64,000 nt of DNA, taken from contig JAUNIO010000004.1 in NCBI GenBank assembly GCA_030535355.1, positions 13,513-77,512 of the forward strand. The letters run 5' to 3'. Made by a program: the position numbers and the translations under genes. Source of the DNA: a bacterium. GTDB taxonomy: Bacteria > Vulcanimicrobiota > Xenobia > Xenobiales > Xenobiaceae. The notes beneath the pieces were generated by a model. That model searched no databases. It was given only the letters and a program-made list of their open reading frames with translations, and was not told the DNA's origin. Below, in pieces: positions 1 to 26,105 of the stretch (position 1 is its first letter; every line of letters starts with the position of its first letter).

Positions 1-39
1 CATTCCCTGCTTGTAGGGAAAATAAGGAGAATTATTGCC

Positions 40-309
40 ATGCCTGCCGGAGTGTTTGTAGATAATGCCAAAGTTATGCCTAAGGGACAGGTGACCATTC
101 CCAAAGATGTGCGTCAAGTCCTCGGGGTCTCGTACGGCGATCGCGTATCTTTCATTGTTGAGGGAAAAAATGTCAGTATTGTTAATTCTGCCCTTTACGC
201 TATGCAGATGCTGCAGGATGTAATGACCGGGGAAGCTGAAAAAGCAGGATTGACTTCGGATGAAGATATATTGGCTTTAGTTAAAGAAGTAAGGGATTCC
301 GAACAGTGA
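40..309 (+). CDS. AbrB/MazE (SpoVT-AbrB) family antitoxin-like DNA-binding protein
   Basis: 89-aa ORF. The N-terminal KVMPKGQVTIPKDVRQVLGV looped-hinge-helix motif is typical of AbrB/MazE antitoxins. It overlaps the downstream PIN-like fragment by 4 nt (306-309). Confidence 0.6.
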   Translation: MPAGVFVDNAKVMPKGQVTIPKDVRQVLGVSYGDRVSFIVEGKNVSIVNSALYAMQMLQDVMTGEAEKAGLTSDEDILALVKEVRDSEQ

Positions 310-470
310 GAGTATTGCCGGATACGAATGTGCTCATATCAGCCCTGTTAAATCCGCGCGGTTCGGCTGCTGAAGCGTATAATAAGGCGGTTTCAGGTGA
401 TAGGGATTTTCTCGAATCGGGAATATCGCATCCCAAAATTATGGCGCCTGATGAATTCGTCCGCAAATAG
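306..470 (+). pseudogene. Truncated PIN-domain (VapC-like) toxin remnant
   Basis: GTG-initiated 54-codon frame (VRVLPDTNVLISALLNPRG...) matches only the first third of a PIN domain. It is translationally coupled to the upstream antitoxin and ends prematurely. Confidence 0.4.
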
Positions 471-487
471 TTTTACTGACTTCGGAT

Positions 488-787
488 TTGTCCGCAGGCG
501 AGAAGAAGCGGATTTTGCAGAACGAATTTAATATTGCGATGACGCACGAGTTGGAAAGCGAGGTCGATTTAATGGGTGGTTTTATTGATTCTTTAGCAGA
601 GCGCTGTGTTGAAAAGGGCCGCCGTGAGGGGCGTAGCGAGGGGCTTAGCGAGGGCAAACTGTCAGGCATTTTAGAGGCCATCCGCAGCCTGATGGCCAGC
701 ATGAGCTGGGAAGCCGATAAGGCTATGGACGCTTTGCGCATTCCCGAAAACGAACGTGACTATTATCTTCGCGAGCTGGCCAAATAA
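488..787 (+). pseudogene. C-terminal fragment of an Rpn-family (YhgA-like) PD-(D/E)XK nuclease/putative transposase
   Basis: The 99-aa ORF is clearly homologous to the C-terminus of the intact 339-aa protein at 32231-33250 (EKKRIL..EF.I, KGRREGRSEG repeats, ..AMDAL.IP). The N-terminal nuclease domain is absent. Confidence 0.5.
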
Positions 788-837
788 CGCGGCAGGCTGT
801 ATTTGTAACGCGGAAACACCGCAGGGATGATGGTTAA

Positions 838-1647
838 GTGAGGGTTGATATGAAGTTTTCTTGTTCTTTATGCGGACAACAAGAAACCGTCAGCACGCGG
901 AAAGCGCACTGCGATTGCGGCGGATTGTGGAAACTGGATTTTCAGCCTCCGAAATTCGATCCGGAAAAGATCGACCGGGATGAGTGGAGCATGTTCCGCT
1001 ATCGGGAATTCATGGCTCTGGACGACGATACGTCATGGCGCGGAGTTACTCTGGGGGAAGGCATGACGCCTATCGTTCGGCTGGATCGGGAGGCGCTCCT
1101 GAAAATGGATTACTTTATGCCCACCATGTCATTTAAAGATCGCGGTGCGGCGGTGCTGATCGCTCACTGCCAAGCGATCGGGGCGGACCGCGTCGTCCAG
1201 GATTCCAGCGGAAATGCGGGAAACGCCGTCGCGGCCTATTGCGCGAAGGCCGGTATAGCCTGTGAGATCTTTGTTCCTGAAGGAACGAGCCCCAAGAAGA
1301 TCGATATGATTCGCGCTCATGGCGCAGTCTGCACCGTAGTCCCCGGAAACCGCGATCACTGCGCGGATGTCTCACCGCTGCCCACTCTCGCGGAGGGGAT
1401 TGCCATAGGCAAGCCTATGCGCGGCAGGGAAATTTTGGAGTATGCCGGCAAACACGGCGTCCGTTTCGTCCACGTCCCGGAAAATAAGATTCTTGCAGCC
1501 CGCGCAGCGCTGGCCCTGAAAGGTATTTATTGCGAGCACACCACGGCCGCGAACTATGCCGGTTACCTGGCGTATTGTGAGCAATACGGCCCGGCTCCTG
1601 ACTGCCTTATCACCATGTGCGGCGCGGGGCTCAAATCCGACCATTGA
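838..1647 (+). CDS. Threonine synthase-like PLP-dependent enzyme (internally shortened, possibly degenerate)
   Basis: N-terminal Cys-rich zinc-ribbon-like segment. SFKDRGA PLP-lysine motif, SSGNAGNAVAAY and PEG motifs, and a ThrC-like C-terminus (TLAEGIAIG..). At only 269 aa, about 100 residues of the central ThrC region are missing. Confidence 0.45.
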   Translation: MRVDMKFSCSLCGQQETVSTRKAHCDCGGLWKLDFQPPKFDPEKIDRDEWSMFRYREFMALDDDTSWRGVTLGEGMTPIVRLDREALLKMDYFMPTMSFKDRGAAVLIAHCQAIGADRVVQDSSGNAGNAVAAYCAKAGIACEIFVPEGTSPKKIDMIRAHGAVCTVVPGNRDHCADVSPLPTLAEGIAIGKPMRGREILEYAGKHGVRFVHVPENKILAARAALALKGIYCEHTTAANYAGYLAYCEQYGPAPDCLITMCGAGLKSDH

Positions 1648-1877
1648 TCCGAATTCCGCTTTAGTGCAGGAGATTTCAGCACCGAACTGCGCCGTTGGAT
1701 TGCCGATTATACATTTTGCGGTTAAAACAGCATTGGAATGCGCTTTTATCGCCAAGCCTTATGACGGCGTGAATTGCGTGGCAGCGGAGCGCTTGGTCAG
1801 CGAGAAACAAAAATGGATTGCCGCGGCTTTTGCACAGAAGCGTTTAGCGGTTCTAAGGAAGCGCTGAGGCCATTATA

Positions 1878-3371
1878 TCAGCGATCGATTACCTTATACG
1901 CCCGAAAACCGCAGTCGGCCGCGAAGCCAGGGAGCAGATAAGCTGCTGTGTCATGCTCGCATAGCTGTTGGCCTGCCCGGCGGATCCGTTCCCTGCCAAT
2001 TTCCGCTATATTGCTGAATCCCGCTTTAAAACCGTCAGACGCTTCATCGCAGGGCTCAGGCTGCTGTACCATGATGAAACGCCGCTGTCCGCCATCCTCG
2101 GTGTTGACCTGCATGACCGCATGAGCGGTGGTAGCCGAGCCGGCAAAGAAATCCAGGACTATATCGCCGGGTGTTGTGGCCTGCTGCACTAAAAAAGCTA
2201 TGAGCGATAGCGGTTTGCTGAAATCAAAAACCTTGCGGCCGCCAAAGAGCTCGATCAGCTCACTGGTCGCCCGCTCGGTGGAATGCCAGCCTAAATTAGT
2301 AGTTATAGCTTTGGTGGTATTTTTGTAAGAATTGATGAACTTCTTTTGCCGCGGCGTGCCCTGAGGATTGCTGGGGAAGATGATCAGCTGGCTGGCAATC
2401 ATCTCGGCTATGCTTTTTTGAGAAAAGGCCCAATTTCCGTAAAATTCGCGGCCGCTTTGAGGATCGCGTATCGAGAAAAAATTGTTTTGCCTGCCGGTAG
2501 CGCGGAGGCTTTCCGAACGCCAGAGGCCGCGGGGATCATTATCGGGATTGGCAAAGTCTGCTTCATCGCGGGGCAGGCCGCTGAAGCGCACTTGAGACAA
2601 ATTGCGGGCATACGCTAAAATGTATTCGCAGCTGCTGGTCACCATGGTGCGCGGCGGCACTCCTCTGGCGGCGCGTTTGGTCTGCCAAACGAACTGAGCT
2701 AAGAAATTGTCTTCACCGAATATTTCATGGCAGATTTGGCGCAGGTTGGCATTTTCCACATCATCAATAGAGATAAATATGACCCCGTCTTCGGTCAGCA
2801 AGTCTTTGGCCAGGAGCAGGCGGGGATAAATCATCGAACACCAGCCGGCATGAAAGCGCCCTGGCTTTGCCGTTTTCTTTTGGATTAAATAGGCGTCGTT
2901 TGGCGCTGCGGCACTGCTATCTGGCCATTTTTTGCTTCTGCTTCGGTAATTGTCGTTGTAAATAAAATCGTGTCCGGTATTGTAAGGCGGATCGATGTAG
3001 ATCATTTTGATCTTGTTTAGATAATTTTCACGCAAAAGCTTGAGCGCGTCCAGATTATCGCCTTCGATAAAGATATTGTCCGTAGTTTCCCAGTTCAGGC
3101 TGGCTTCGGGACAGGGGTGCAGAAGCTTGTCTATAGGACGTTCGGCTTCTGCTTGGGCTGCTTTTTTGCCTGGCCAAGTGAATCCGTAGGTTTCTGGTTC
3201 GCTGGTTTTGAGCGTGGGTTCGAGCAGCTGTCTAAGCCTCTCAAAGTTAATCGCTCGTTTTATCAGGCCGCTGCCGTCTTGAATTTCGGTTAGGCAGCTG
3301 GGAAAGAGAGCGGCGATTTTTTCGGTATTGTCGGCCATAAAGTCCTGAGGAATAGGGCGGGTGCTGTCCAT
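1878..3371 (-). CDS. Site-specific DNA methyltransferase, N6-adenine/N4-cytosine beta class (motif IV DPPY before motif I)
   Basis: 497-aa ORF with DPPYNTG (motif IV) upstream of FFAGSATTAHAV (motif I, FxGxG). No adjacent restriction or Res gene. Confidence 0.7.
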   Translation of the reverse strand: MDSTRPIPQDFMADNTEKIAALFPSCLTEIQDGSGLIKRAINFERLRQLLEPTLKTSEPETYGFTWPGKKAAQAEAERPIDKLLHPCPEASLNWETTDNIFIEGDNLDALKLLRENYLNKIKMIYIDPPYNTGHDFIYNDNYRSRSKKWPDSSAAAPNDAYLIQKKTAKPGRFHAGWCSMIYPRLLLAKDLLTEDGVIFISIDDVENANLRQICHEIFGEDNFLAQFVWQTKRAARGVPPRTMVTSSCEYILAYARNLSQVRFSGLPRDEADFANPDNDPRGLWRSESLRATGRQNNFFSIRDPQSGREFYGNWAFSQKSIAEMIASQLIIFPSNPQGTPRQKKFINSYKNTTKAITTNLGWHSTERATSELIELFGGRKVFDFSKPLSLIAFLVQQATTPGDIVLDFFAGSATTAHAVMQVNTEDGGQRRFIMVQQPEPCDEASDGFKAGFSNIAEIGRERIRRAGQQLCEHDTAAYLLPGFAADCGFRAYKVIDR

Positions 3372-3423
3372 AAGTATTTTGCGGCTGGGTGTCTAGATAC
3401 AGTGCTGTAAGGCAAATGGGAAG

Positions 3424-3798
3424 TTAGGCAGGCAATTCCTGCACCACAGTAAACAGCACTAAATCTTCAGTACCTGTGTTGACTATGCTGTGCTCACTGC
3501 CTTTGGGGCAGTAATGGCAAACCCCTGGAGATAAAGTTTCTTCAGATTCTCCGCATATAGCCAGGCCTTGTCCGCTGATTACAAAGTTTATATCGTTACT
3601 GGTTCGGTGGAGATGTTTTCCTATAGATGATTTTGGGCGTATTTTACTGACGATGACTTTGCCATCGCTGTTAACGATCATTTTAGCAGCCACTTGCCCG
3701 CTTCCGCCGTTCATGTTTTCTAAGGTGAATTCTGTTAGGCTAGTAAAATCAATCAGCATTTTTTTATTATCAGGCCGCCGTGCGCCTGCCTTTCTCAT
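3424..3798 (-). CDS. Cupin-domain protein
   Basis: 124 aa. Conserved His/Glu positions (HLH.., CPKGSEHSIVN) are typical of a small cupin barrel. Confidence 0.45.
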   Translation of the reverse strand: MRKAGARRPDNKKMLIDFTSLTEFTLENMNGGSGQVAAKMIVNSDGKVIVSKIRPKSSIGKHLHRTSNDINFVISGQGLAICGESEETLSPGVCHYCPKGSEHSIVNTGTEDLVLFTVVQELPA

Positions 3799-4152
3799 GC
3801 AGCTATTTGGTGTGCTTGTGGAGAAGTTTATTTGAAAACTGGCCGCTCTCTTCCTGCGCTTTTTAATTATGAACTTGGTTTGGCCGCAGCATATTTTTAA
3901 AGATTAAAATTAGCCAGCGTGTTTTGAGAAGGATACCCATTTCTAACAATAAAATTTTATCAATTATTTGATAATGGGGGAGCACCAATGCAATATGAGA
4001 TCAGCGGTGGCAATTTGCCTGTTTTAGAGTGCAGGCTCAAAGAGTATGAAACTATCGTTAACATATTGCTGAGTGACTTGGCGTTATGACCAGGTAGGGA
4101 TAGGCTTTTACCGATGCCGATAGTTACCAGAGCTGAGTTCTAGGGACCGAAT

Positions 4153-5400
4153 ATGAAAATTTTGCATTACGTTAAAAAAATCTTCTGGAATATATACGTT
4201 AAAGCCTTATTTATAACTGTTGCAGTGCTGGCCGCGTTCTTAATAACCTGGGACTATTGGGACTTTGCCCATCGAGAAGGACAGGCGGATAGTAAAGAAG
4301 ATATCGGTGAAAAAGCTTTGTGGAAATTTGTGGCTGACGATATCGACAACTCTAATAAGTTTGCCCCAGCGCACAGCCTTGACAGCCTTGGCTTTAATAA
4401 TAAAAAAGGCGATCTGCAGTCGAAAAAAAAAGAAATAGCCGAACTGAAAAAGTGGGCGGCCGATAGGATGCGGCGGCTTCGCTATCAAGATCAGTGTCTC
4501 AGAGAACGCTTACCGAAGGAGCTGCCTAGCAATAATCACCTTTATCTAGATGATTTATGTTTGCTGCAGGAGCTGGAAGTCCGATTTGCCCATCTTGCTA
4601 TTTTGTTTTCGGAAATAAGCGTTAATTCGGAACTGTATTTTCAGCGTGATTTTGACTCTAAGCTGTGCGATGAGTTTTATAAGGTTTACGATAGAGAGAG
4701 ACATACCCGCCGCTTTGCTATGCCCGGTAAAGTTGTATTAAACAGGGAAATGAGCAATGTTGGTGGGGCTGCAGCTCTGCAGACATACAGATGCGGCGTA
4801 CAGCATGGGTGTTTTAGACTGTATCAAGGGACCTCTCAGGCATCGCTGCGCCATGAATTTGCCGAACTGCCGCAGTCACTGCTGACAATGTGTGCTAAAG
4901 ACGCCGTATACGAAGCTAATTATGCCTGTTTATTTAAGCGCATACATAATGGCTCAAAAATTGCTGGCGTGTACCGTTGGCTAAAAAACCCAAGAATCAT
5001 ATTATTCAATTTATCCCGAAGCCATGAAATATTGGCTTTAGCCATTAATAATCACGATTTTTTAGCTGATCCTGCCAATCCTTATTTGAGGTTTGTGCCC
5101 TTTCCCGAAGATGAAACCTGGAAGGAAGCTCAATATCTGGCGTTAGCTATCGATAATTTTCTGTGGACGGTTAAATACAGCGTTGATCACTGCGGGACGC
5201 AGAGCGCTATCCTAAAATACCGAATCCGGCCTTTATATGCTAAAAACAGTCCGGCGATGCAACATTATACAACATATTTTGCTATATATCCTCAGTATCA
5301 TTATGTCTTAACCCGCGGGACTTTGGATATTTTGGGCAAAGAACGCGGGGAACTCAAGATTGCCGAAGAGTACGACACGGATATGAAAAAACTCTTATAG
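4153..5400 (+). CDS. Membrane-anchored protein, paralog A of an unrecognised family (N-terminal part; gene appears frameshifted)
   Basis: N-terminal TM helix followed by a WDYWDF motif. Shares EKLW, RLYQG.SQASL, A(I)DNFLWT(V)KY..DH and KNS..M..Y motifs with the ORFs at 5909 and 7481. AT-rich. Confidence 0.6.
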   Translation: MKILHYVKKIFWNIYVKALFITVAVLAAFLITWDYWDFAHREGQADSKEDIGEKALWKFVADDIDNSNKFAPAHSLDSLGFNNKKGDLQSKKKEIAELKKWAADRMRRLRYQDQCLRERLPKELPSNNHLYLDDLCLLQELEVRFAHLAILFSEISVNSELYFQRDFDSKLCDEFYKVYDRERHTRRFAMPGKVVLNREMSNVGGAAALQTYRCGVQHGCFRLYQGTSQASLRHEFAELPQSLLTMCAKDAVYEANYACLFKRIHNGSKIAGVYRWLKNPRIILFNLSRSHEILALAINNHDFLADPANPYLRFVPFPEDETWKEAQYLALAIDNFLWTVKYSVDHCGTQSAILKYRIRPLYAKNSPAMQHYTTYFAIYPQYHYVLTRGTLDILGKERGELKIAEEYDTDMKKLL

Positions 5401-5411
5401 ACCTTTCCCGT

Positions 5412-5705
5412 GTGGCCAAAGACATATGCGACACTTGGAAGCGTTATTGTACAGATAAAAGCGATTTTAAAACGTTTGCAGCTGAATTGAGGAAAAACGA
5501 AACTGATTTTGAAAAGGCGCGCCAAAAGGTTTTAAGGCTGCGCTGGCGTTATATTCACGAGTGGGCCCGGCGCAGCGGTGACGCTAACGCGGAGAGTTTC
5601 GCTGACGGTTATGCTGTCAGCTCCATGGCTTATGACGGCGTAAGCTTTACGGCGCTGGAACGGTTAGTCAATGATGAACAAAAGCATAATGCTCCCAATG
5701 ATTAG
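5412..5705 (+). CDS. C-terminal portion of paralog A (separate reading frame)
   Basis: TWKRYCTDKSDFKTF..EKARQKVLRLRWRY aligns with the C-termini of paralogs B and C (TWERYRQDKIDYKTF..., IWDSYCAGNITYASF...). It lies in a different frame from 4153-5400. Confidence 0.5.
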   Translation: MAKDICDTWKRYCTDKSDFKTFAAELRKNETDFEKARQKVLRLRWRYIHEWARRSGDANAESFADGYAVSSMAYDGVSFTALERLVNDEQKHNAPND

Positions 5706-5908
5706 GATCAGAGGCGGACTATCAAAGACGACTATGAGTTTGGGTCAACAGTTCCAAGGTCATCAAGCCTTAACTAAATGACATTGCCCATAATTAAAAG
5801 CGAATAATGTTTTGCGGGTTTTGCAAGGCGAAAAAGAGTCGGGGCACTAGCCAATGAATACAGCATCCTACTAAGTATTTAGCTAACAAACGTAACTGCG
5901 GGGGAAAC

Positions 5909-7441
5909 ATGAAGTTTTGGCGGTTAATAGGAAAAATATTCTGGAATAAATACACCAAATGGCCGCTTATTATTGTTATTGCAATAATACTTGTGTTCAA
6001 AATCTGGGATTATTGGGATTTTCGCGGCAGCCGCGGATCGGCCGAGCCGCAGGAACTGGCCCGTGAAGAGAAACTATGGCATTTTATGGGTGTTATTGAC
6101 AAACTGGATAACGACTATTATCAAACGAAACAAAAATCAGCTAGTCAACGCGATGAAAAAATAGATAAATATTTAACTGCGTATGACGTAAATTATTTCA
6201 CCTTTCACCCTTTAGATTTTACTAAAATAAGAGAAAGTGCCGCTCAGTGTTTGGGAAAATATAATCATTGCAGGGAACAGCTGCAGCATATACCAGATGC
6301 CGACCAATTTGGATACCGCGATGAAATGCTCGTTATGCTGGCATTAAATTTACGGATTTTTAATTATTCTCTTATGGGTGATGAGTTGCTGTTCAATACG
6401 CAGCATTATTTTGATAATAAAATTGCTTACGATGATTTAAAAGAAAAATATTATAAATTGTACAGCAGAGAAAATAAAAATAGTGAATTTATATGTCTCC
6501 CTGACCGTAGTTATTTTGCTGTGGAAAATACTACACTAAAACTTTCTTCAGTGAATAGTGCGATGTTTTGCATCAAAGAACATAGCGGTTATAGACTATG
6601 GCAGGGGCAGTCGCTCGCTTCTTTACAGGAAGAGATCGATCCTTTCGTAGTTAGTGATGCAGATTATTCGATTGGATATTCGGTTTTAGATCCACGTGGG
6701 CCTGCGTGGATAAGATATTTAGAATGCCGTCAGCAGAACGGGTCTAAATGTGCTTCGCTGCAGCTTCCGATTGTCAGAATGTTTTCGCTTCCGCTGCTGT
6801 ATAATAAATATATGATTTTTATGACCAGTTTAGGCGGCAACCGTAATCCAGAAGTTGTTCAGCAGTATGCGGCGGGTAAGAAAGATGGTATAATAATAAA
6901 CTTTGCCACAGCGCAAACAGATGAGGAACGGCTGTGGCGTTTAACTAATTATCTTGCTGTTACTGCCGATAATTATTTATGGACGATAAAATTTAACGCC
7001 GATCATAAACTAAAACCAAGTAAATTACTAGCAATTCAGCTTGTGCCTAGGTTTGGCAAAAATAGTTCCGAGATGAAGCGATATAACCGAATTCTAACTG
7101 CGGATTTGCAATATTGCCGCCGTCAAGTTCAATCTAAAGAATTTCAAAGTTTTCCGGGAAACAAAAAATCTGCCTTGGAGTTCTTTTCTGCCGTTGAAGC
7201 GATCCAGCAGACTTGGGAGCGCTATCGCCAAGATAAAATTGACTATAAAACGTTTTATAGGACATTGCAGAAAACTGAAGAGCTGTATGAGAAAAAACGC
7301 CAAGAGGTTTTGAGCCAACGCTGGGATTATTTGTATTCGCAAGCACCAAATAGCTATGTTTATATTGTTACATCGCTGCGCACCGATGGAGTACCTCATC
7401 CGGCACTGAAACGCTTGACAGAAGCAAAACTGCAGCTTTAG
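5909..7441 (+). CDS. Membrane-anchored protein, paralog B of the same unrecognised family
   Basis: 510 aa. TM anchor followed by WDYWDF, and the shared internal and C-terminal motifs. Very AT-rich. Confidence 0.65.
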   Translation: MKFWRLIGKIFWNKYTKWPLIIVIAIILVFKIWDYWDFRGSRGSAEPQELAREEKLWHFMGVIDKLDNDYYQTKQKSASQRDEKIDKYLTAYDVNYFTFHPLDFTKIRESAAQCLGKYNHCREQLQHIPDADQFGYRDEMLVMLALNLRIFNYSLMGDELLFNTQHYFDNKIAYDDLKEKYYKLYSRENKNSEFICLPDRSYFAVENTTLKLSSVNSAMFCIKEHSGYRLWQGQSLASLQEEIDPFVVSDADYSIGYSVLDPRGPAWIRYLECRQQNGSKCASLQLPIVRMFSLPLLYNKYMIFMTSLGGNRNPEVVQQYAAGKKDGIIINFATAQTDEERLWRLTNYLAVTADNYLWTIKFNADHKLKPSKLLAIQLVPRFGKNSSEMKRYNRILTADLQYCRRQVQSKEFQSFPGNKKSALEFFSAVEAIQQTWERYRQDKIDYKTFYRTLQKTEELYEKKRQEVLSQRWDYLYSQAPNSYVYIVTSLRTDGVPHPALKRLTEAKLQL

Positions 7442-7480
7442 TAATTTAATGTATAGTTAGTTTATAGGATAAGATAGCGT

Positions 7481-9139
7481 ATGAGCTGGATTAAAAACAA
7501 ATTATTTCCTGTTTTAAAATACTTAAAATATTTGGGCATTATTATTATCTTAATAATTATGATCGAAGCTTGGGAACGCCATATCACAGCTTCTATCCAC
7601 AAAGCTATACCGCCAGAGGCTATCAAAAACGAGCAGGAGCTTTGGTCAGCACTGTGCGCTTTGGCTCAAGACAGCCAAGAATATTATGAGCAGAGCGAGG
7701 AAATCTATAAAGAAGGCGATAAAAAACGGCCCAAGGCAGATGCTGAGCACAGCGTTTCTGAGGATGAAATATACGATGAAAAACATACCCCTAGAGTGCT
7801 CACTCCGCCGCGCCGTTTTGATTTAGGAAAGCTGCGCCAAAACGTCAAGAAATACGCTGGCAAATTGCGGCAGCGCCGCAAACAGATGGAAAAAGTCCCC
7901 GATGATCCCAATATTGGCTACCGCCAAGACGCCCTGCTGTATTGGGTGCTGTGTGAACGGTCGCTGGCTTTGCAGCAGCTGGCCTGGGAATTTATGCTGA
8001 ATGCTGAAGCCAACTATGCCAAGCATCCTTTGCCTGCTGCTCTCTTAGATAAAGAGAAATACCTGCGCATGAGCTATTATTTCGATCCCGCTTTGTCCGG
8101 CTATTATAATCTATATTATAATAATCCCCGCAAGAAGGGTTTTAAATACCCCTATTTTGCCTTCCTAATGCTGGAAAAGGACGCTTTGCGCTATGCGCTG
8201 TACCGGGCGGAGTACCGCTGCAATCAAGGCCATGGAGGCTTTGGCTATTGGCAGGGAGATTTTGCTGAAACCATCTGGGTCGATTTCAACTGGGAATCAT
8301 ATTTGGGGCTGTATTTCCGCGATGATTCCAATGAACTTTATGATCTAACAGGCAGCAGATTTAACAGCTATCACGCCCGCCATTACCGTCACGATTCTCG
8401 CGCTATGGGAAAATCAGGCTGGGCGCGGGGCTTTGAGCTTAGAAGTAAATCTCACTCGGTATATGCCTCCATATTGATATCCTTGATAAAGTGTTCTGAA
8501 TATTGCCGCAGCTTAAATCGTATTTACAAAGAAAAGTGGTGGGACAAGCCGGATGACAGCGATATTCGCGGATATATATCTCTGTCATGGATACCTCAGT
8601 CATTTCGCAGCCCTGATGATAAATTATGGGATACGGCGCGTTTTCTATATTTATGCACTGACAACTTTCTCTGGAAGATCAAATTTGCAGAAAGCCATGG
8701 CGTGGAAGATAAAAAAATCTATCCCTGCGTCATAAGGGAAAAGTACGGCAAAAAAAGTGCAGAACTGCGTTTTTACCGCGATGCTTTAGCCTCAGACTTG
8801 AAATCCTGCCGCCAAAAGATAAACGATGCTGATGGTTTAGAGGATCCTGAGCTGCAGGAAGCGGCCCGCAAAGTCTGCGCTAATACTGAAGCGATTTTAA
8901 AAATCTGGGACAGTTACTGCGCTGGTAATATCACTTACGCGTCTTTTGTCAAGACTGTGCAGAACCAAGAAAAGTCTTATTATAATTGGCGCTATAAAGC
9001 CATTACCGCCCGCTGGAATTATTTGCTGAAGCGCAACAAAAATGCGCTGCTTTATACAAAGCAGAACCTCTCGCTTGACGGAGTCCCCTATTTCTTAATC
9101 GATCCTTTGGTCTCAAAAGCTTTGGAAAAAAAGGATTAA
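7481..9139 (+). CDS. Membrane-anchored protein, paralog C of the same unrecognised family
   Basis: 552 aa. N-terminal TM helix. Shared motifs: GYRQDALL, GGFGYWQG, TDNFLWKIKFAESH, KYGKKSAELRFY, and the C-terminal W..Y....Y..F and RW.YL signature. Confidence 0.65.
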   Translation: MSWIKNKLFPVLKYLKYLGIIIILIIMIEAWERHITASIHKAIPPEAIKNEQELWSALCALAQDSQEYYEQSEEIYKEGDKKRPKADAEHSVSEDEIYDEKHTPRVLTPPRRFDLGKLRQNVKKYAGKLRQRRKQMEKVPDDPNIGYRQDALLYWVLCERSLALQQLAWEFMLNAEANYAKHPLPAALLDKEKYLRMSYYFDPALSGYYNLYYNNPRKKGFKYPYFAFLMLEKDALRYALYRAEYRCNQGHGGFGYWQGDFAETIWVDFNWESYLGLYFRDDSNELYDLTGSRFNSYHARHYRHDSRAMGKSGWARGFELRSKSHSVYASILISLIKCSEYCRSLNRIYKEKWWDKPDDSDIRGYISLSWIPQSFRSPDDKLWDTARFLYLCTDNFLWKIKFAESHGVEDKKIYPCVIREKYGKKSAELRFYRDALASDLKSCRQKINDADGLEDPELQEAARKVCANTEAILKIWDSYCAGNITYASFVKTVQNQEKSYYNWRYKAITARWNYLLKRNKNALLYTKQNLSLDGVPYFLIDPLVSKALEKKD

Positions 9140-9489
9140 AGTATAGGGCTTTGCTTTGGGCGAGAATCGTTGGCCCGGGAAAATCAATTATCGGGAATCA
9201 GCAGGACTCACCAGCAGGGCTGAAAGCGTATCCGCTGAGCGGTTTATTATGGCTTGAGCGATTATTGGCGGCAGCAGGTGTCTGACGCAGATGAATCAGG
9301 TAGATAGCCGACAGCTCTCTTGCATAAAGAAAAAATAAAGGGGAAATAATTGTATCTTCGCTGAATATATCTCCCCGTAAGCTAATGCCGTTACTGTGTG
9401 CGAACACAGCGCGGAGACAATGGTATATGTGCAGCATTTGCCATATCCTTGAGATTGGCCTAAACGATATTGCACCCTAAATAAACGGC

Positions 9490-11355
9490 TTGGCAATGCA
9501 GTACGGTTCATCTTTTCTGCGGGGAGGTTATCAGCGTATGGCCGATTCAACTAGAAATCCTCATCAGGCTCTAACCGAACAGGAGCAGCGCGATATAGTG
9601 GCCCAGTGGGCTTTCGACGTTCGCCCTTTGCTGCTTCGCTTCCACCTGTATTTAGAAAACGTGCAGACTACTTGGATTAGGGGAGGGCGCACTTCAGAGA
9701 CTTTGCTGGAAATGTCCTTCTTAAATGGGCGTATCGAGCGCCTAATGGCTCTTACCGCTGCAGTTACAGCCTTAGGCACTAAGCTGTACGGGCGATTTGG
9801 TGACGGTAAAAATTTAGATAAGGTGCGCATCAATGCTGTCAAAAAAGATTCCGACGCCATATCGGCCTACGCTATGAGCGAAAGCCTGTGGCACCTCTCC
9901 CGCAGCTTGCCCGAGAACCACGCGATCATGGTGTGCCTGGGCGAAGGCTTGATGCCCAAAGGCGGAGAGACGCCGGAAATGGGTTCTAATCCCCAGCTGG
10001 GTTTTGGGCGCGTTTACGCCCGTCCCGAGGTGGCTCAAATTTTAGATAAGCTGATTGTGCGCCTGCTCAACGACGCAGATTTTACCTGGGAACAGTTTTA
10101 CGCCGAAGTAAAACGGCGCGGCATAACTATTTGGGGCACGGCTATAGATACTTTGGAAAATACCACCCGTTTTGCCCGAGGCGAAAACGTAGGCCCCATG
10201 ACCATTCTGCACATCTTTGATCAGCCCATGAGCATTACCCGGCCTTACGAGGGCTATATGGGGACGCTGATTGTCCCGCAGGCCGTAATCGATACGGCGG
10301 AAAAAGATTCTATTCTGATCAATTATCGCACCGATAGGCGTTTGGTCATGGAGGCTATCCGCCGCACCTATCCTGGGCTAAAGCCCGAGAAACTGCATGT
10401 TTGGACCTTAGGCGGAACTAGCCGGGAGCCGAGGTTAGCTTCACTGTGGAAACAGTGGGAAGATTTGGGTGCCCATGTCATCGAAGACGGCTGGATTACC
10501 TCAGAAGGTATACCTTCCTTTAACGATTCCGGCACCTATGCGCCTACCTATCATGTTAAAACTTGGAGGGATGCGAGCGGTGACTTAAACCTTATGGTAA
10601 TAGACGGCTATGCCGCTTCCGCTGAAGCTTCTCAGGCGGCTACCGTGGCCAGAAGCCTGGGATTGGCTGCTTCGCTTTGCGTATTGACCTCCAAGTGCGC
10701 CTTTGACTGGCAGATCGAGCGCGAGATTATGCGTCTCAATGCTGATGCAGACGATTTCGCCTCTCAGCTGCAGGCTTTAACTGGCTGCGCGGTAGATGAT
10801 GAAATGGCAGCCTCATATCGGCGCATGATCCACGAATGCGTACAGGCCAATATTCCTTTAAAACGCAGCGTTATGGAAGCCGGGGACCTTTTCCCAGAAA
10901 AAGAATGGCGGAGCCTGGCGGTATGCGGTTATATGTGCGCTGATCCTTATACTGGAGCTTCTGGCGTGCGCCAACTGGAGGAGAATGTGTACGAGGTGAC
11001 GGTGCGCCTAGTTTCAGAAGAGGCCGATAAGCTGGTGACTTTTGCTCTGAGGCTCAATGAGACCCCTGGACAGGAACGTTTGGTCTTCAATCCTTTGCTG
11101 AACCGCTTTATGGCGGGTGAAGATTATCGCAGCCGCCCCGTGCGCATCTCCGACTCAGGACGTATTCGCAATGAGCTGCAGACTCTGTGCGCCGAAGCCT
11201 TGGAATTCCCCAGCAGCCAGGAGATAGTCGTGCATTTTAACAAAATTTCTCCGGCGCTGATCAGCGCGGAAAACCAAGGGAAATTGCGCGAGATTTTGTC
11301 CTGGTACAAACAGCGCCACCCCTATTGGTTTAAATGGCTTTCCGTCCAGGACTAA
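9490..11355 (+). CDS. Fructose-1,6-bisphosphatase class II (GlpX)-like domain protein with N- and C-terminal extensions
   Basis: The central region shows GlpX-like patterns (VCLGEG...E, GTAIDTLENT, LGGTSREP..L...GAHVIEDG, LMVIDGYAASAEA). The 621-aa length is about twice that of GlpX, and the identification rests on pattern similarity alone. Confidence 0.35.
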   Translation: MAMQYGSSFLRGGYQRMADSTRNPHQALTEQEQRDIVAQWAFDVRPLLLRFHLYLENVQTTWIRGGRTSETLLEMSFLNGRIERLMALTAAVTALGTKLYGRFGDGKNLDKVRINAVKKDSDAISAYAMSESLWHLSRSLPENHAIMVCLGEGLMPKGGETPEMGSNPQLGFGRVYARPEVAQILDKLIVRLLNDADFTWEQFYAEVKRRGITIWGTAIDTLENTTRFARGENVGPMTILHIFDQPMSITRPYEGYMGTLIVPQAVIDTAEKDSILINYRTDRRLVMEAIRRTYPGLKPEKLHVWTLGGTSREPRLASLWKQWEDLGAHVIEDGWITSEGIPSFNDSGTYAPTYHVKTWRDASGDLNLMVIDGYAASAEASQAATVARSLGLAASLCVLTSKCAFDWQIEREIMRLNADADDFASQLQALTGCAVDDEMAASYRRMIHECVQANIPLKRSVMEAGDLFPEKEWRSLAVCGYMCADPYTGASGVRQLEENVYEVTVRLVSEEADKLVTFALRLNETPGQERLVFNPLLNRFMAGEDYRSRPVRISDSGRIRNELQTLCAEALEFPSSQEIVVHFNKISPALISAENQGKLREILSWYKQRHPYWFKWLSVQD

Positions 11356-12003: not shown

Positions 12004-13461
12004 TTAGCTGATGACGTGATTTCTCTCGATGACCAGATCGCCGTCAACCCAGCGGGCTACACCCATGTAAGGCATACCGTTCTTATCGAAGAGGTCTTTA
12101 GGCTCGATCTTCTGGTTGGGTTCGGTGTAGAGGATGCGCCCAGCGTCGATGAGGCGCTTCATGTTGGTCTTTAAGTCCTGAGCTGGTTTGCTGTTGGTGG
12201 AAGACGTAAAGATAGAATTGGCATCTACGGGAGTCTCAACTTTAGCGCCGGAGAACATACCGAAACCGTCGCCGTCCAAGGTCACAGTCATCATGCGGCT
12301 TTCCCGGGGACCGATATCCATATCTTCAGTGCCGATTTCACCTTCGGGCAGGATCAGACGGTTAGTCATGGAGTTGCGAATCAATTCACTGTTTTTGCCG
12401 CCCATGTGCTCAGCATCGGCTTTTAACATGCAGTTGGCCATCTGTTTATACGTGAAATCACCGCGGGGGGCTTCGTGCATCAAGTGACCGTAGAGCTCGA
12501 TCATCTCAGCTCCGCCTGCTTTGATGGCGTCTTTAGGCTCCATGCCATTGCTGACGTTGCGGCTGACGATGCCTGCGTAAATATCATAAACCGCTCCGGT
12601 CCAAACGCGCGACCAGTTGTGCATTTCCGTACCCAATTTATCAGAACCGGGGTTCTCGGGCAGGGTGCTGGGGTCTTGCCATTTCCAGGTGTTATTGGCG
12701 TTGCGGATGAAGTCGCCGCCGGTCTTGTTTTTACCCACAGCGCGGTTGATGGCCGTCCCCAGTTCTTCGGCGGTGCGGGCGATGCAGTTCTCTTTTTTCA
12801 TGTCGCCGCCGGTTTCGCGGGCTGCTATCTCACAGGTCTTATCGTCCTGCGTGGCCATGAATAACCCCATCATGTCGGCGAAGGATTCGTGGAAGCCCAG
12901 AGGATCGGGACTCCAGGAATTGAGATAGCCGGGGCGGATGCCGTCGAGCATGGCATGACCGACTTCGTGGGAGACAGCTTCACCGGACTGGCCGGAATAG
13001 ACCATTTCGCCTAACTGTTTATCGAAGCTGTGGAAGAAGTTTACCGAGCAGTCGGAGCGGGAATAATAGGCGTTGAGCATTTCGCCGCGGTCGGGGCGCA
13101 CAGTAATGGTGTCGCCGGAGGAACGCCAAGGCACTTTTTCGCCAAAGGCGGATTCGAACATTTCCAGCGTTTTGGCCACGGTAGCAAAGGTATGAGCGCT
13201 GGTGTAATTCTTGGAATCTTTCTGATCAAAGACGAAATTGCCATCTTCGTTGGGTTTTAGATCGGCATCTAATTTAACCCGGCTGGTTTGGGGACCGTGT
13301 TTGCCCATGGTGACGTCGCCCACATGAGTGGTGACGGGGCTCATGACCACGTTGTCTTGAGGATTGTAAGAAAATTCAATTTCTTTGGCGGCAGGCGCGG
13401 CTGCTGACGAAACAGAGTTTACATTGTAGTTGACATTGGAAACGCCTATAGAATTGATCAT
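12004..13461 (-). CDS. Thermolysin-like (gluzincin) zinc metalloprotease-domain protein
   Basis: HEVGHAML (HEXXH) followed 23 residues later by GFHESFADMMG. This parallels thermolysin HELTH...GAINEAISDIFG (third-ligand Glu). No obvious N-terminal signal peptide. Confidence 0.5.
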   Translation of the reverse strand: MINSIGVSNVNYNVNSVSSAAAPAAKEIEFSYNPQDNVVMSPVTTHVGDVTMGKHGPQTSRVKLDADLKPNEDGNFVFDQKDSKNYTSAHTFATVAKTLEMFESAFGEKVPWRSSGDTITVRPDRGEMLNAYYSRSDCSVNFFHSFDKQLGEMVYSGQSGEAVSHEVGHAMLDGIRPGYLNSWSPDPLGFHESFADMMGLFMATQDDKTCEIAARETGGDMKKENCIARTAEELGTAINRAVGKNKTGGDFIRNANNTWKWQDPSTLPENPGSDKLGTEMHNWSRVWTGAVYDIYAGIVSRNVSNGMEPKDAIKAGGAEMIELYGHLMHEAPRGDFTYKQMANCMLKADAEHMGGKNSELIRNSMTNRLILPEGEIGTEDMDIGPRESRMMTVTLDGDGFGMFSGAKVETPVDANSIFTSSTNSKPAQDLKTNMKRLIDAGRILYTEPNQKIEPKDLFDKNGMPYMGVARWVDGDLVIERNHVIS

Positions 13462-13621
13462 CCAAGTTCCTCCGATTATTTGTTAAGCTTAACGTATTAT
13501 CCATTTTGAATTTTATTACATGATTACTAATCATTTCTTGAACTAAATGTTAAAAGATATGCTGAAGCGGCAATGTCGCTAACGAGCTGTCAGCATTACC
13601 AGGCCTTAGCTGCTTACCGGA

Positions 13622-14650
13622 TTAATTCTGGGTGGGCTCAAAGCTCTCCCAGGAAAAATCGGCATAACTCGCTTTGCGGATTAGCCTTTGAGGATCTTTG
13701 GGATAGCTGGGGCCAGGATATTCGACGATGAAAGCGCCGCGTTTGGCATCGTAATAATTAGCTGACGCCATATTGCCCCAGTGGCTCCATCCGGTCAGCC
13801 CCAGCTTGTCGTAATCCAGCTGCCCGCGCTCGATCTCGCTGCCATTTCTGCGAAATATGTAAACGCGCTGGGTTCCAGAACCGCCATAGGTGCAGCTGCA
13901 GACGAGTTCTTTGCTGCCGTCACCATCTAGATCGATGGCGTGATCGTCTATGACAAAATTGAAGCTTTCGCCGATGATCTTCTCCTGGCCATTCACTATG
14001 GCGTAATATCTGCGGATATAGTGGTCGCTAATTTTTGGTGGTTCTCCGCTGCCGGGATTTATTGCCTTAGCGCCGCCATTGGGCTCGGAATAATCAGCTC
14101 CTGGCTGGGGCGGCATCATCCCGCATTCCTCATACCAGCCATCATAGCCCATGATGCCGGCGAACGGCCTGGCGTGCTGGGCACGCGCATTTTTGATGCA
14201 GCTGCGCAGCCAGGCAGCGCGTTCCGGGGAAAAGGATTTCAGCGCTTTATTAAGCTCATCTTTACAGAGGGGATGATCGATGTAAATGTGCCAGGTCCAA
14301 TAGAGTTTTTCGTCTGCCGATCTGGCATAGGCTCCTTCGGCTCCCAGACGGTACAGCAGGAGCTTGGGCAGGGGATAGCTGTATTCGCATATTTGCTTTA
14401 AAGAGGCTTCATTGTACGTTATGCCGCTGGCGGCCAATTCTTGTGCCGTAGGGCGGATGGAGGCGGGTGCCAGCAAAGGGGAAGCATCTGCCGCGAGCAC
14501 GGCTTCGGCAGCGGGAGGTGAGGAGGGATGAGCCTCCAGCCGGGCAGCGGGGGCGGTCAGAACCATGCCGGCTACTCCAGCTGCCGCGAGGCTGCGTTTG
14601 GCCAGGGCGGTGCATTTCCAATTCAGAATATGATACAGAGAAACACTCAT
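13622..14650 (-). CDS. Secreted hypothetical protein (signal peptide, DxDGDG FG-GAP/VCBS-like motif)
   Basis: 342 aa. N-terminal hydrophobic signal with Ala-rich cleavage region. Contains DLDGDGSKELV. Confidence 0.45.
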   Translation of the reverse strand: MSVSLYHILNWKCTALAKRSLAAAGVAGMVLTAPAARLEAHPSSPPAAEAVLAADASPLLAPASIRPTAQELAASGITYNEASLKQICEYSYPLPKLLLYRLGAEGAYARSADEKLYWTWHIYIDHPLCKDELNKALKSFSPERAAWLRSCIKNARAQHARPFAGIMGYDGWYEECGMMPPQPGADYSEPNGGAKAINPGSGEPPKISDHYIRRYYAIVNGQEKIIGESFNFVIDDHAIDLDGDGSKELVCSCTYGGSGTQRVYIFRRNGSEIERGQLDYDKLGLTGWSHWGNMASANYYDAKRGAFIVEYPGPSYPKDPQRLIRKASYADFSWESFEPTQN

Positions 14651-16778: not shown

Positions 16779-17708
16779 ATGAATATCACCTGCACTGCTA
16801 GCTCTGCGTTTAATGCTGTTCCTTTTGATCCTTCGACGCTATCGGCTGCCAAACCTGACACCTGTGAGACCGGCTTTCCGCCAGCGAAAGATGCTTTAGA
16901 ACTCAGCAGCCAGGAAAAAGACGACATCGCTCAGCTGGTGCGTCTGGGTGGTGGTTCCCAGGCGAAAATAGAAGATTTCACCGTGGTTAAGGGTACTAAC
17001 GGAGATGACATAATTAATGTAAGCAATGCCGGCGAAGGCGGGTTAAATATCACCGTCAACGATAAAACTACGTCTTATACAGCAGAACAGGCTGCCAAAC
17101 TCATAATAGCGTCTGGCGACGGTCATGATCGCATTAAAGTAGATAAAGAGGTCACCGCTAATCTGCTGATAAGCGGCGGACGAGGATTCGACAATATCGA
17201 GAGCGGATCGGGTCACGATACTATAGTAGATAATCTCGATCAGAATTATATAGACGGCGGAGCTGGCGATGACACCATTATCGCTAAGGGCGTCAATCTG
17301 CAAGACCCGCCTACGCTGTCCATGGTCTATGGACGCGAGGTCAATGGCAACGTCATTAACGGAGGAGCAGGCAATGACTATATTGAAGGCAGCAATTATA
17401 ACGACGTGCTGGCAGGCCTGCACGATAACGATATGATTTTTGCCCATGACGGAGACGACGTTATTTTGGCAGGGCAGGGGCGCAATTTTGTCGATGCCGG
17501 CGCGGGCAATGACCATATCGAGAACCAAGGAGAGCGTGGAATTTTACTCGGAGGCGCGGGCAATGATTATATAGAAGCCTGGCAGCCAGCTGCGGCTATT
17601 ATCGACCGTCAAGGCGAAAATATCATTGAGGCATCTGTCAGCGTGGATTATTTGCTGGCTTCTCCCGAAAGCAAAGTTACCATTCACAAGACGCCTAAGA
17701 CTCTTTAA
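16779..17708 (+). CDS. RTX-type (hemolysin-type) calcium-binding repeat protein
   Basis: Multiple GGAGNDxIE / GGxGxDxx nonapeptide repeats. No N-terminal signal peptide, consistent with type I secretion substrates. Confidence 0.6.
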   Translation: MNITCTASSAFNAVPFDPSTLSAAKPDTCETGFPPAKDALELSSQEKDDIAQLVRLGGGSQAKIEDFTVVKGTNGDDIINVSNAGEGGLNITVNDKTTSYTAEQAAKLIIASGDGHDRIKVDKEVTANLLISGGRGFDNIESGSGHDTIVDNLDQNYIDGGAGDDTIIAKGVNLQDPPTLSMVYGREVNGNVINGGAGNDYIEGSNYNDVLAGLHDNDMIFAHDGDDVILAGQGRNFVDAGAGNDHIENQGERGILLGGAGNDYIEAWQPAAAIIDRQGENIIEASVSVDYLLASPESKVTIHKTPKTL

Positions 17709-17719
17709 TATAAATTAAT

Positions 17720-19936
17720 ATGCAAATGGATAATAACTTTTATAGTCATAAATTGTTTGCTAAATTAGCCTTTTCTGCTTCGCTGTCTTTTTTGACCCTT
17801 ATGGCGTTTCCAGTCTCCGCTGAACCTTATTTCGAAGTTGATAATATGACAGCCGGATATTCCTGTAATTTCCTTGCCGAACCGCATACTCAGCTGCTGG
17901 CAGTAGGGCAGCTTCCCAGTATGCAGAGTGTCGGCAGCAAAGTATCCGGCATTAAAGTCAGCGATTCGCAGGACACCACGGCGGAAAAGCAGCTGGAACG
18001 GCTGAAGAATTTGTTGGAGCAGGGCAATACCGAAGCCCAAGTGGAGATGGGATACCGCTATTACCGCGGGCAGGGTGTGCCTAAAGATGTCGGCAAAGCC
18101 TTGGAATTGTGGAAACTGGCTGCCGACAAAGGCTCTCGTGTCGCTCAGTTCAATGTGGGCGTGCTCTACAACGAAGGCGAGCATATAGCCAAAGACAAAG
18201 CGAAAGCCGCTGAATATTTCACTAAAGCCGCCGAACAGAACCACATCGATGCTCAGCTGAACTTGGGGCTGATGTACCTGCTTGACCCCGAAGTGACCAC
18301 TGACATATCCAAGTCCGAAGGCTGGTTTTCGAAGGCTGCTGAGCGCGGTTCGGCTGTCGGTATGCTGTATATGGGGCTGCTCAGCGAAAACGAGCATAAA
18401 GATTACGCCAAGGCGGCGGATTGGTACAATAAAGCTGCCATTCAAGGCAACCGGGCCGCCAAAAACAACTTAGGCCTGCTCTATTTTCATGGGCGTGGCG
18501 TAGAAAAAGATGAAAAACGCGCCCGTCAGCTCTTTTCTGAAGCGGCTGAGGCTCATATGCCGGAGGCTCAGTACAATCTGGCCTGCATGATGTTTGAGGG
18601 CTTGGGCGGACCGGAAAATAAGCCGGAGGCCTATAAGCTTACTTTGGCTGCCGCTGAGGGTGGTTACGGCAAAGCCCAGTTTCAGGTGGGCAGCGCTTAC
18701 GATCGCGGCGCAGGCGTAGAGCAGAACGATGTCAAAGCTGTTGAATGGTATGAGAAAGCCGCTAAAAACGGCGTTTCCGAAGCCCAGTATAACCTAGGCA
18801 ATATGTATCTCTGCGGGCGCGGGGTGAAGGCCAATCCCAAAGAAGCGCTGAGATGGTTTAATAAAGCCGCTGAACAGGGCGATGTGGAAGCTATAAGCAA
18901 CATCGGGGTGATGTTTGAAAAGGGCATGGTTGTGCCCCAGGATTTCGCTCAGGCGCGCAAGCTCTATACTTTGGCGGCGGAGAATGGCAATCCTCAGGCG
19001 ATGGTCAATTTGGGCAATCTTTACTATAAAGGCGCCGGAGTCCCCAAAGATATGGCAAAAGTGGCGGAGTGGTGGTCTAAAGCCGCAGAAATGGGCCATA
19101 TAGACGCTATGTATAAAATGGGAGTGCTCTATTCCGAAGGCTTAGGAGTGGAAAAGAATGCCCAAGAAGCTTTCAAATGGTACAAAAAAGCTGCCGAGCT
19201 TGGCCATGCCTCAGCCCAATGCTATGTGGGCAGCGCTTATCTCTTAGGTGAGAATGTGCCTGCGGACCTAAACGAGGCCTTAAAGTGGCTGGAGAAATCT
19301 GCGGCCCAGCGAGACCCCAGAGCGGAGCTGCTGGCGGCGACCATTTTGCTGGAAGACAAGAAACACCAGCATGAACCGGCAAAAATCCTGAATTTGCTGC
19401 AAGACGCCGCCAGTCAGGGACTTCCTGAGGCACAGTTTAATTTGGGTCTCCTTTACGATCGCGGCCAGCTGGTAGAAGCCGATCATGCCAAAGCCTTTCA
19501 GTGCTTTTTAAAAGCGGCGGAAAGCGGCTATGCCAAAGCTCAGTACAACGTAGCTGTAAGCTATCTTAGAGGTGAGGGCGTTGCCAAAGATAACGATGTC
19601 GCTGTCAGCTGGCTGCAGAAGGCTGCCAACGGCGGAGTGTCCGACGCTCAGTTTGCGGTAGGATTGCTTTATTACGCAGGCGATGTTTTGCCTAAAGATC
19701 ATAAAGAAGCCCGCCGTTATTTTACTATGGCGGCTTTGCAGCAGGATATGCGGGCTCTGTTTAACCTAGCGCTGATGCTAGCCCGAGGCGAGGGGGGCGA
19801 AAAAGATGTCAAACAGGCCATAGCTCTTTTTGAAAAGGCAGAAGCCCAAGGCTATAAACCGGCCGCTGAGCTTTTGCAAAAGTGCCGCGAGCAGCTCAGG
19901 CAGGGCGACACTCAGAACTTGGACGCCGTCAAATAA
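17720..19936 (+). CDS. Sel1-repeat (TPR-like) secreted protein
   Basis: 738 aa. Signal peptide followed by about 18 Sel1-like repeats (A..W..KAA.QG...AQ..LG..Y..G.GV.KD). Confidence 0.8.
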   Translation: MQMDNNFYSHKLFAKLAFSASLSFLTLMAFPVSAEPYFEVDNMTAGYSCNFLAEPHTQLLAVGQLPSMQSVGSKVSGIKVSDSQDTTAEKQLERLKNLLEQGNTEAQVEMGYRYYRGQGVPKDVGKALELWKLAADKGSRVAQFNVGVLYNEGEHIAKDKAKAAEYFTKAAEQNHIDAQLNLGLMYLLDPEVTTDISKSEGWFSKAAERGSAVGMLYMGLLSENEHKDYAKAADWYNKAAIQGNRAAKNNLGLLYFHGRGVEKDEKRARQLFSEAAEAHMPEAQYNLACMMFEGLGGPENKPEAYKLTLAAAEGGYGKAQFQVGSAYDRGAGVEQNDVKAVEWYEKAAKNGVSEAQYNLGNMYLCGRGVKANPKEALRWFNKAAEQGDVEAISNIGVMFEKGMVVPQDFAQARKLYTLAAENGNPQAMVNLGNLYYKGAGVPKDMAKVAEWWSKAAEMGHIDAMYKMGVLYSEGLGVEKNAQEAFKWYKKAAELGHASAQCYVGSAYLLGENVPADLNEALKWLEKSAAQRDPRAELLAATILLEDKKHQHEPAKILNLLQDAASQGLPEAQFNLGLLYDRGQLVEADHAKAFQCFLKAAESGYAKAQYNVAVSYLRGEGVAKDNDVAVSWLQKAANGGVSDAQFAVGLLYYAGDVLPKDHKEARRYFTMAALQQDMRALFNLALMLARGEGGEKDVKQAIALFEKAEAQGYKPAAELLQKCREQLRQGDTQNLDAVK

Positions 19937-24506: not shown

Positions 24507-24564
24507 TTTCCGGCATTTATTCCGAGAATTGTTGGTGTTCAAACAAAAAACAATAGTGTTGTGT

Positions 24565-24597
24565 AAATAATCCTGCATGTTTTTGCAGGATTATTTA
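24565..24597 (+). terminator. Stem-loop / putative terminator after the first M16 pair
   Basis: Perfect 13-bp stem AAATAATCCTGCA..TGCAGGATTATTT with a T-rich loop. The downstream U-tract is weak. Confidence 0.4.
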
Positions 24598-24718
24598 TGT
24601 TTAGCTTTAGTGTGCTTTAAGGATGTTGTGTTAGGGTTAATATGTTAAGGAATATTTAACATAATTGTCTGCGTCGGCTTTCAGGCCGGCGCTGTTTCAT
24701 TTTGAGGAGGATGAGGAG

Positions 24719-26075: not shown

Positions 26076-26105
26076 CGCTGTCCGATATGTAAGGGAGGAA
26101 AAACC

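Follow-up and report, generated by a model that had tools for sequence, protein, structure and literature searches.

We find that three tandem genes at positions 4153-9139 of the stretch of DNA analyzed here (64,000 nucleotides of contig JAUNIO010000004.1, assembly GCA_030535355.1; hereafter the window) belong to a multigene family that is extremely rare and confined to the lineage of the uncultured bacterium that carries it. The proteins that they encode, which we call W1, W2, and W3, are new at the level of both family and fold, the novelty shown here being one of family and fold and not of mechanism. As to what they do, we tentatively favor, with a probability of about 0.45, the hypothesis that they are nonenzymatic envelope proteins that bind or organize an external or envelope partner and that they form a family resident in its lineage. 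The source genome carries a GTDB assignment to the class Xenobia, and members of this class have been reported in human faeces as well as in built environments (PMC11484240).

The three genes lie on the forward strand and are paralogs of one another. W1 (4153-5705) is read as a product of 415 amino acids (4153-5400) followed by one of 97 amino acids (5412-5705), W2 (5909-7441) encodes 510 amino acids and is deposited as MDO5295326 ("MAG: hypothetical protein [bacterium]" at NCBI), and W3 (7481-9139), which starts 39 bp past W2, encodes 552 amino acids (MDO5295327). An initial annotation, made from the DNA alone, had proposed three same-strand paralogs of these lengths, and both the positions of the open reading frames (ORFs) and BLASTP bear it out: the longer piece of W1 matches W2 with an E value of 9e-30 and W2 matches W3 with an E value of 3e-35, at 22-26% mutual identity. 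The 97-residue piece of W1 aligns with the C-termini of W2 and W3, and a hidden Markov model (HMM) of the family matches both W1 pieces. The break between them is a one-base deletion in a run of adenines and is the sole indel in the alignment with L006, a 97%-identical contig that encodes an intact 517-amino acid W1 ortholog at its positions 56-1609, to which the two parts of W1 are 98% and 100% identical. The frame is lost at 5386-5391 on the forward strand, where the window has A6 and L006 has A7, a difference that rests on two sequences only and in which an assembly error is possible; the break in W1 could be a pseudogene lesion, slipped-strand variation, or an error of assembly. The motif blocks that had been listed as common to all three proteins are so in part. 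The C-terminal block is present in all three copies, and W(D/E)YWDF, GYR.D.L, and RL(Y/W)QG occur in two of three, with W3 having WERHIT in place of WDYWDF as well as GYWQG and W1 having LYLDD in place of GYRDD. The array region holds no ORFs besides these three family genes, and there are no further or degenerate family copies elsewhere in the 64-kb window.

The rarity of the family is evident from every collection that was searched. W1-W3 have no match near curated cut-offs in Pfam, NCBIfam, PADLOC (5027 models), or PHROGs, and the best subthreshold matches of window proteins, to BenE (E 0.069) and DUF7121 (E 0.027), are both far under the gathering scores. Even when matches up to E <= 10 were admitted for the 23 aligned members, no Pfam family recurred in two or more of them. 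In a word-indexed search, 5.8 billion clusters yielded seven proteins including the query, and a profile search returned the same seven. When 1.84 billion representatives, which stand for ~15 billion proteins, were searched exhaustively with an HMM, 26 matches were obtained, 17 of them below 1e-30. Family members are absent from 185,579 GTDB species genomes, from JGI metagenome contigs, from 50,697 phage records, from 72,556 plasmids, and from IMG/VR. The statement of the initial annotation that these proteins can be assigned to no known family therefore stands, given that the Pfam, NCBIfam, PADLOC, PHROGs, and PDB searches were all without a match. Orphan families as such are frequent among lineages that have not been cultured.

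The predicted structure likewise has no specific match. The AlphaFold2 model of W2 (mean predicted local distance difference test score 79.5; predicted template modeling score, pTM, 0.81) is all-alpha with ~20 helices, and that of W3 (69; pTM 0.72) has the same all-alpha layout, its confidence being low solely in the middle part that is specific to its group. The sole nonhelical element in both models is a short beta bridge that follows the DN[FY]LW..K helix (residues 364-382 of W2 and 404-422 of W3). Foldseek searches of the PDB and BFVD gave no match below E 0.08, a profile search against PDB sequences gave none below E 0.9, and hhalign of sub-alignments gave no signal of an internal duplication of the ectodomain. 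Conservation is concentrated in the C-terminal third, where mean pair identity is 0.38 versus 0.26 and where the models are also most confident; its blocks are DN[FY]LW..K, KNS.EM, W..Y, RW.Y, and DGV. This best-conserved, highest-confidence third opens with the (T/A)DN(Y/F)LW..K(F/Y) block, which in W2 comprises residues 353-362 (6965-6994, forward strand) and in which N355, L357, and K361 are nearly invariant. In a 14-sequence alignment the invariant residues, numbered as in W2, include E53, L56, W57, Y136, E159, N163, C221, H225, Q232, R274, S279, and W343, together with N355, K361, K384, S386, W436, Y439, E457, R464, R471, W472, D493, and G494. When the distant short subfamily is added, W57, Y136, W343, R471, and G494 are still invariant, and C221, H225, N355, K361, Y439, and D493 are retained at 90% or more. 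The pair C221 and H225 forms a Cys-x3-His element within an RC...HGGY.LWQG block (6569-6583 in W2, forward strand) that is kept in at least 90% of the 23 members.

Each protein appears to be tethered to the membrane at its N-terminus. A Kyte-Doolittle scan combined with the charges of the flanking residues finds one N-terminal hydrophobic segment, and no second one, in 22 of 23 full-length members; the sole exception (L005:1810-3411) has a start that is probably mis-called. The segments, all on the forward strand, span residues 18-32 of W1 (4204-4248; lysine-rich N-flank), 18-30 of W2 (5960-5998; N-flank +5/0 and C-flank +3/-3), and 17-28 of W3 (7529-7564), in agreement with the single transmembrane helix that had been noted for each protein. 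Across the family the N-flank of the segment carries two to seven lysines or arginines and almost no aspartate or glutamate, and the C-flank is neutral or acidic. Because the N-flank is rich in lysine and arginine, the positive-inside rule predicts a signal anchor with the N-terminus in and the C-terminus out, which would place ~470 residues on the outer side. The N-terminus of a distant member, P0026, resembles a signal peptide or a lipobox, which fits an extracytoplasmic location. The ectodomains are thus probably extracytoplasmic, as judged from these sequence features.

Tandem arrangement is also seen in relatives. Each of the six contigs that were initially recovered through a homolog has at least two family genes, arranged head to tail, and L002, L004, and L003, whose source samples differ, share overlaps with 97-100% identity at the protein level, so that when joined they may represent an array with eight or more genes. 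A neighbor-joining tree resolves old paralog groups, each of which has members from several contigs, with W1 in group A, W2 in group B, and W3 in group C. The content of the arrays varies between close relatives; for instance, the group-D genes of L001 and L002 share 93% identity and have different neighbors. Group-C genes start 33-55 bp past the preceding family gene in all cases (window 7442-7480; L003 1102-1156 and 4537-4569; L005 1775-1809; L006 3343-3381), compared with 17-554 bp for the other gaps. This spacing suggests that group C is co-transcribed with its upstream partner, and group C probably, or at least perhaps, works with the gene just upstream. Long (~500 amino acids) and short (~400 amino acids) forms are mixed in L088, which has at least four family genes, and L087 has two. 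The short subfamily (400-421 amino acids; L088 1-6783 and L087) is without the KNS hairpin segment and an insert at ~165-215, and it shares its arrays with the long member P0015; downstream of the short subfamily, which includes P0026, comes a TehB-like S-adenosylmethionine-dependent methyltransferase.

The family genes are maintained by selection and evolve faster than their neighbors. We estimated the ratio of nonsynonymous to synonymous divergence (dN/dS, or omega) by the Nei-Gojobori method (NG86) for six ortholog pairs. Omega relative to L006 is 0.20 for W1, 0.47 for W2, and 0.25 for W3, and comparisons with more distant orthologs give 0.17-0.43; values in the range 0.17-0.47 indicate that the genes are functional and under purifying selection. 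The possibility that they are junk ORFs is ruled out by an omega well below 1 and by conservation across organisms. The corresponding values for flanking genes are 0.05 for a 621-amino acid gene on the right and 0.11 and 0.16 for a Mod methyltransferase gene and a PALP gene on the left, so that the family values are two to nine times higher. No dN/dS above 1 was found, either gene-wide or within three divergent patches of W2, described below, and the proposal that the paralogs are diversifying is not supported in the sense of positive selection. Instead, the genes evolve fast, their copy content differs between relatives, and W2 contains patches of recombination. These patches, which set W2 apart from its L006 allele, cover residues 46-80 (6044-6148), 151-226 (6359-6586), and 266-300 (6704-6808) on the forward strand, and in the second of them nucleotide identity to L006 falls to 79% versus ~97% overall. 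Synonymous divergence (dS) in the three patches is 0.39 versus 0.05 elsewhere in the gene, an 8-fold difference, and omega is 0.45 versus 0.35. The raised dS indicates that the patches are imported divergent allelic segments, acquired by recombination, rather than the result of diversification by point mutation. No donor paralog for them was found among the available arrays.

The array lies in a stretch of low guanine-plus-cytosine (GC) content (3600-9500, ~0.32-0.48 in most 300-bp bins) that spans the 5' part of a neighboring cupin gene, the array itself, and the intergenic regions. The sharp GC drop and deviant composition pointed out in the initial annotation are confirmed by measurement, as the GC content is 0.425 versus 0.528 +/- 0.018 in other 5.6-kb stretches of the window (z = -5.8) and the tetranucleotide distance is 0.33 versus 0.14 +/- 0.011, twice that of any other part of the window. 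GC content at third codon positions (GC3) is 0.36-0.49 in the family genes versus 0.56-0.74 in the other genes measured, and runs of at least seven A or T are ~5 times denser (e.g., A9 at 4423). That annotation went on to read the stretch as a foreign island, and a recently acquired island carrying effector or surface genes would account for the GC content, the doubled tetranucleotide distance, and the low GC3, as well as for a left flank that is full of gene remnants. However, we consider such an acquisition quite improbable. Flanking genes are common to related arrays: in L001, a PALP gene 94% identical to window positions 841-1644 lies upstream of the array and a Mod ortholog (83% identity) lies downstream, and the ortholog of the 621-amino acid gene (88% amino acid identity) directly follows the group-C gene in L005. 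The synonymous divergence of Mod and of the 621-amino acid gene from their relatives is 0.9-1.4, and the neighborhood is therefore older than these lineage splits; synteny is kept at this distance, with gene order around Mod being rearranged between the window and its relatives. Furthermore, wherever flanking genes are present, the family genes have a higher AT content than these flanks, with GC contents of 0.46 versus 0.55-0.58 in L001, 0.46-0.48 versus 0.55 in L005, and 0.50-0.54 versus 0.62 in L088. There is no integrase, att-like repeat, terminal inverted repeat, or bounding direct repeat at the stretch, where the sole repeated DNA consists of homologous coding segments, and tRNA and Rfam scans of the window gave no match. 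Nor is a donor visible in any of the searched collections. Of the features expected of a horizontally acquired island, deviant composition is thus present, and mobility signatures and patchy presence are not. Given the shared flanks, the AT bias in all loci with flanks, and the lack of mobility signs, low GC content is best seen as a long-standing trait of a resident family and not as a mark of recent import. These comparisons suggest that the array is a resident, lineage-restricted locus rather than a fresh import.

Based on these features we propose the following arrangement for the envelope proteins that we favor. A single N-terminal signal anchor would hold each protein in the cytoplasmic membrane, with a short tail rich in lysine and arginine inside and an all-alpha ectodomain of ~470 residues, composed of long bundles of helices, exposed outside. 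The family has split into the old groups A, B, C, D, and X plus the short form of ~400 amino acids, and its genes stand head to tail in arrays that range from two genes to at least five and that vary in content between related organisms. The C-terminal third is a conserved scaffold, and the N-terminal two thirds, which are more variable, exchange allelic segments by recombination. The ectodomain would bind or organize an external or envelope partner, and the paralogs would represent different specificities. A link to phages, hosts, or competitors may be envisaged. Several points weigh against this hypothesis. No homology to any family of known function was found. The predicted topology is derived from the positive-inside rule and hydropathy only, and the N-terminal segment may instead be a signal peptide that is cleaved off. 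The W2 patches do not fall at the positions that are most variable between paralogs (mean pair identity 0.287 versus 0.311). Finally, the Cys-x3-His element together with the polar residues N355, K361, R471, and D493 may instead be the signature of a catalytic site or of a metal site.

This last point leads to the alternative that the proteins are extracytoplasmic enzymes or binders of a metal or redox cofactor, with the Cys-x3-His element as the active or metal site and with paralogs that differ in substrate. C221 and H225, conserved as they are in at least 90% of the 23 members, fall on a predicted helix (residues 200-231) and, since they are four residues apart, on the same face of it; in addition, the long subfamily has an invariant polar set made up of E53, E159, N163, Q232, R274, S279, N355, K361, K384, S386, E457, R464, R471, and D493. 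We regard an enzymatic or cofactor-binding role as doubtful. It is also conceivable that the array acts against phages, such that outward-facing anchored proteins block adsorption or DNA entry in the manner of superinfection exclusion, each paralog being directed at a different phage. Restriction-modification genes do lie nearby in two organisms (a Type III Mod in the window and in L001, and a fragment of a Type I R subunit in L001), there are toxin-antitoxin remnants at 40-470, and such a role would also be in keeping with the speed at which the genes evolve, the variable content of the arrays, the mosaic alleles, and the AT-rich composition. The membrane-anchored exclusion proteins represented in PADLOC and PHROGs are likewise single-pass, close to restriction-modification genes, and located in compositionally odd regions. 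Yet none of the 5027 PADLOC models and no PHROG was matched, and no copy is present among the phage records, the plasmids, or the viral contigs of IMG/VR. Exclusion genes are usually prophage-borne and defense genes are widely spread by horizontal transfer, which does not agree with a family that has 26 representatives among ~15 billion proteins, an extremely narrow distribution, and a conserved chromosomal neighborhood with core-like genes on its right flank. We therefore consider an antiphage array unlikely.

Comparison with other known helical systems does not change this picture. The nearest structural analogs are the periplasmic sensor domains of the 4HB_MCP, TorS, HBM, and McpZ type, which are four-helix or helical bimodular bundles, but the match, with 5-9% identity, extends over only some 25% of the ectodomain, as would be expected of any long four-helix bundle. 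The 4HB_MCP and HBM sensors have two transmembrane helices and a cytoplasmic transmitter, whereas the present family has one hydrophobic segment and a predicted cytoplasmic tail of ~17 residues, and no Pfam match to 4HB_MCP or HBM was obtained for any window protein or any of the 23 members. The hypothesis that the paralogs are components of a multicomponent alpha-pore-forming toxin of the ClyA/Hbl/Nhe type is suggested by three tandem all-alpha paralogs with ~22-26% mutual identity and by the short beta bridge between two long helices (W2 364-382, W3 404-422), features that are shared with Hbl, Nhe, AhlABC, and SmhABC of the ClyA family, whose tandem genes likewise specify all-alpha paralogs that have diverged widely and in which a small beta element separates long helices. 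Against this, the family has no hydrophobic, membrane-inserting head or tongue and no detectable structural or sequence similarity to the tripartite toxins, including ClyA, Hbl-B, and NheA, and it differs from them in its N-terminal anchor and variable copy number, so that we hold this explanation to be extremely improbable. The Vsp/Vlp-type helical lipoproteins of Borrelia and the Sel1-like Hcp paralogs of Helicobacter are lineage-specific variable surface-protein families, and they resemble the present family in general terms, as clustered, narrow-lineage, helical, outward-facing paralogs that evolve faster than their neighbors and recombine between alleles. There is, however, no homology to either, nor do we see a layout of silent cassettes and an expression site, a signal-peptide or lipobox pattern (with the possible exception of P0026), or positive selection, omega being below 0.5. 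A more ambitious proposal is that the family constitutes a new fold-level class of membrane-tethered helical proteins, organized as a variable, recombining, and possibly phase-variable array that manages phages, hosts, or competitors, with group C paired to its upstream gene. We judge this full scenario to be unlikely; if true, it would add a type of variable-surface or exclusion system not seen before in bacteria.

The genes next to the array are a cupin gene on the left (3424-3798, reverse strand; GC content 0.445), for which the earlier assignment is supported by a Cupin_2 match (E 1.5e-12), and the 621-amino acid gene on the right (9490-11355, forward strand). The latter had been labeled GlpX-like, an identity that we dropped, as the protein has no match at E <= 1 in Pfam, NCBIfam, or PDB. 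It is strongly constrained (the omega of 0.05 given above was obtained with L005) and syntenic with the array, and it is an unrecognized conserved protein in its own right. Beyond the cupin gene lies the Mod methyltransferase gene (1878-3371, reverse strand), which is a solitary Type III mod without a res gene beside it. A 33-amino acid ORF upstream of W1 (3988-4089) has no Pfam match, and in promoter and terminator consensus scans the counts were at or below shuffle expectation. The left flank as a whole (1-3800) looks degraded and forms a patch of apparent gene remnants, which include an AbrB-type antitoxin ORF (40-309) followed by a PIN-like stub of 54 amino acids (306-470), a 99-amino acid fragment (488-787), and the PALP gene (838-1647), which is without ~97 internal residues of its L001 ortholog.

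The remaining window consists of ordinary chromosomal genes, among them those for UvrB, IleRS, LeuRS, DnaB, IspH, MTHFR, a GlmM-like protein, M16 peptidases, and Sel1 and RTX proteins. In the protein database, the closest matches of UvrB share 83-87% identity with it, and MAGs labeled Burkholderiales, Armatimonadetes, Vulcanimicrobiota/Eremiobacteraeota, Candidatus Xenobia, or Candidatus Bruticola follow at 65-72%; the best match in GTDB species genomes is at 59%. UvrB thus points, tentatively, to a poorly represented uncultured lineage, perhaps the class Xenobia of the Eremiobacterota. The M16 (insulinase-type) peptidases form a cluster at 21565-27692, in which one copy seems to be divided between two ORFs, one for the N-domain (24665-25390) and one for M16_C (25374-26075), that overlap in different frames. 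At 16779-19936 an RTX-repeat protein adjoins a protein of 738 amino acids that has 11 Sel1 repeats, and another Sel1 protein is encoded at 60999-62510; repeat proteins of the RTX and Sel1 types are often tied to host association. A second AT-rich patch is located at 52800-54000 (GC content 0.32-0.43 in 200-bp bins), with a 150-amino acid ORF (53522-53974) followed by ORFs of 293 and 1069 amino acids, none of which has a Pfam match. Core ORFs of 276-485 amino acids without a Pfam domain are found at 12004-14650, 20075-21211, 30058-30888, 32231-33250, and 42081-42929, and the presence of such sizeable ORFs fits a poorly characterized lineage.

The family is limited to a few uncultured bacteria that are apparently host- or gut-associated (one sample name points to rumen), and its practical weight is limited by its extreme rarity and by the lack of an assignable function. 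A more general lesson is that a resident gene family can keep a strongly deviant composition as a stable trait, which calls for caution in genome scans. If confirmed, the family would represent a well-delimited piece of protein "dark matter" that has been selected and expanded, that has a confident all-alpha model, and that has no relative among curated families, PDB entries, or viral models. It would then offer an entry point to the envelope biology of a phylum-level lineage almost without cultured members.

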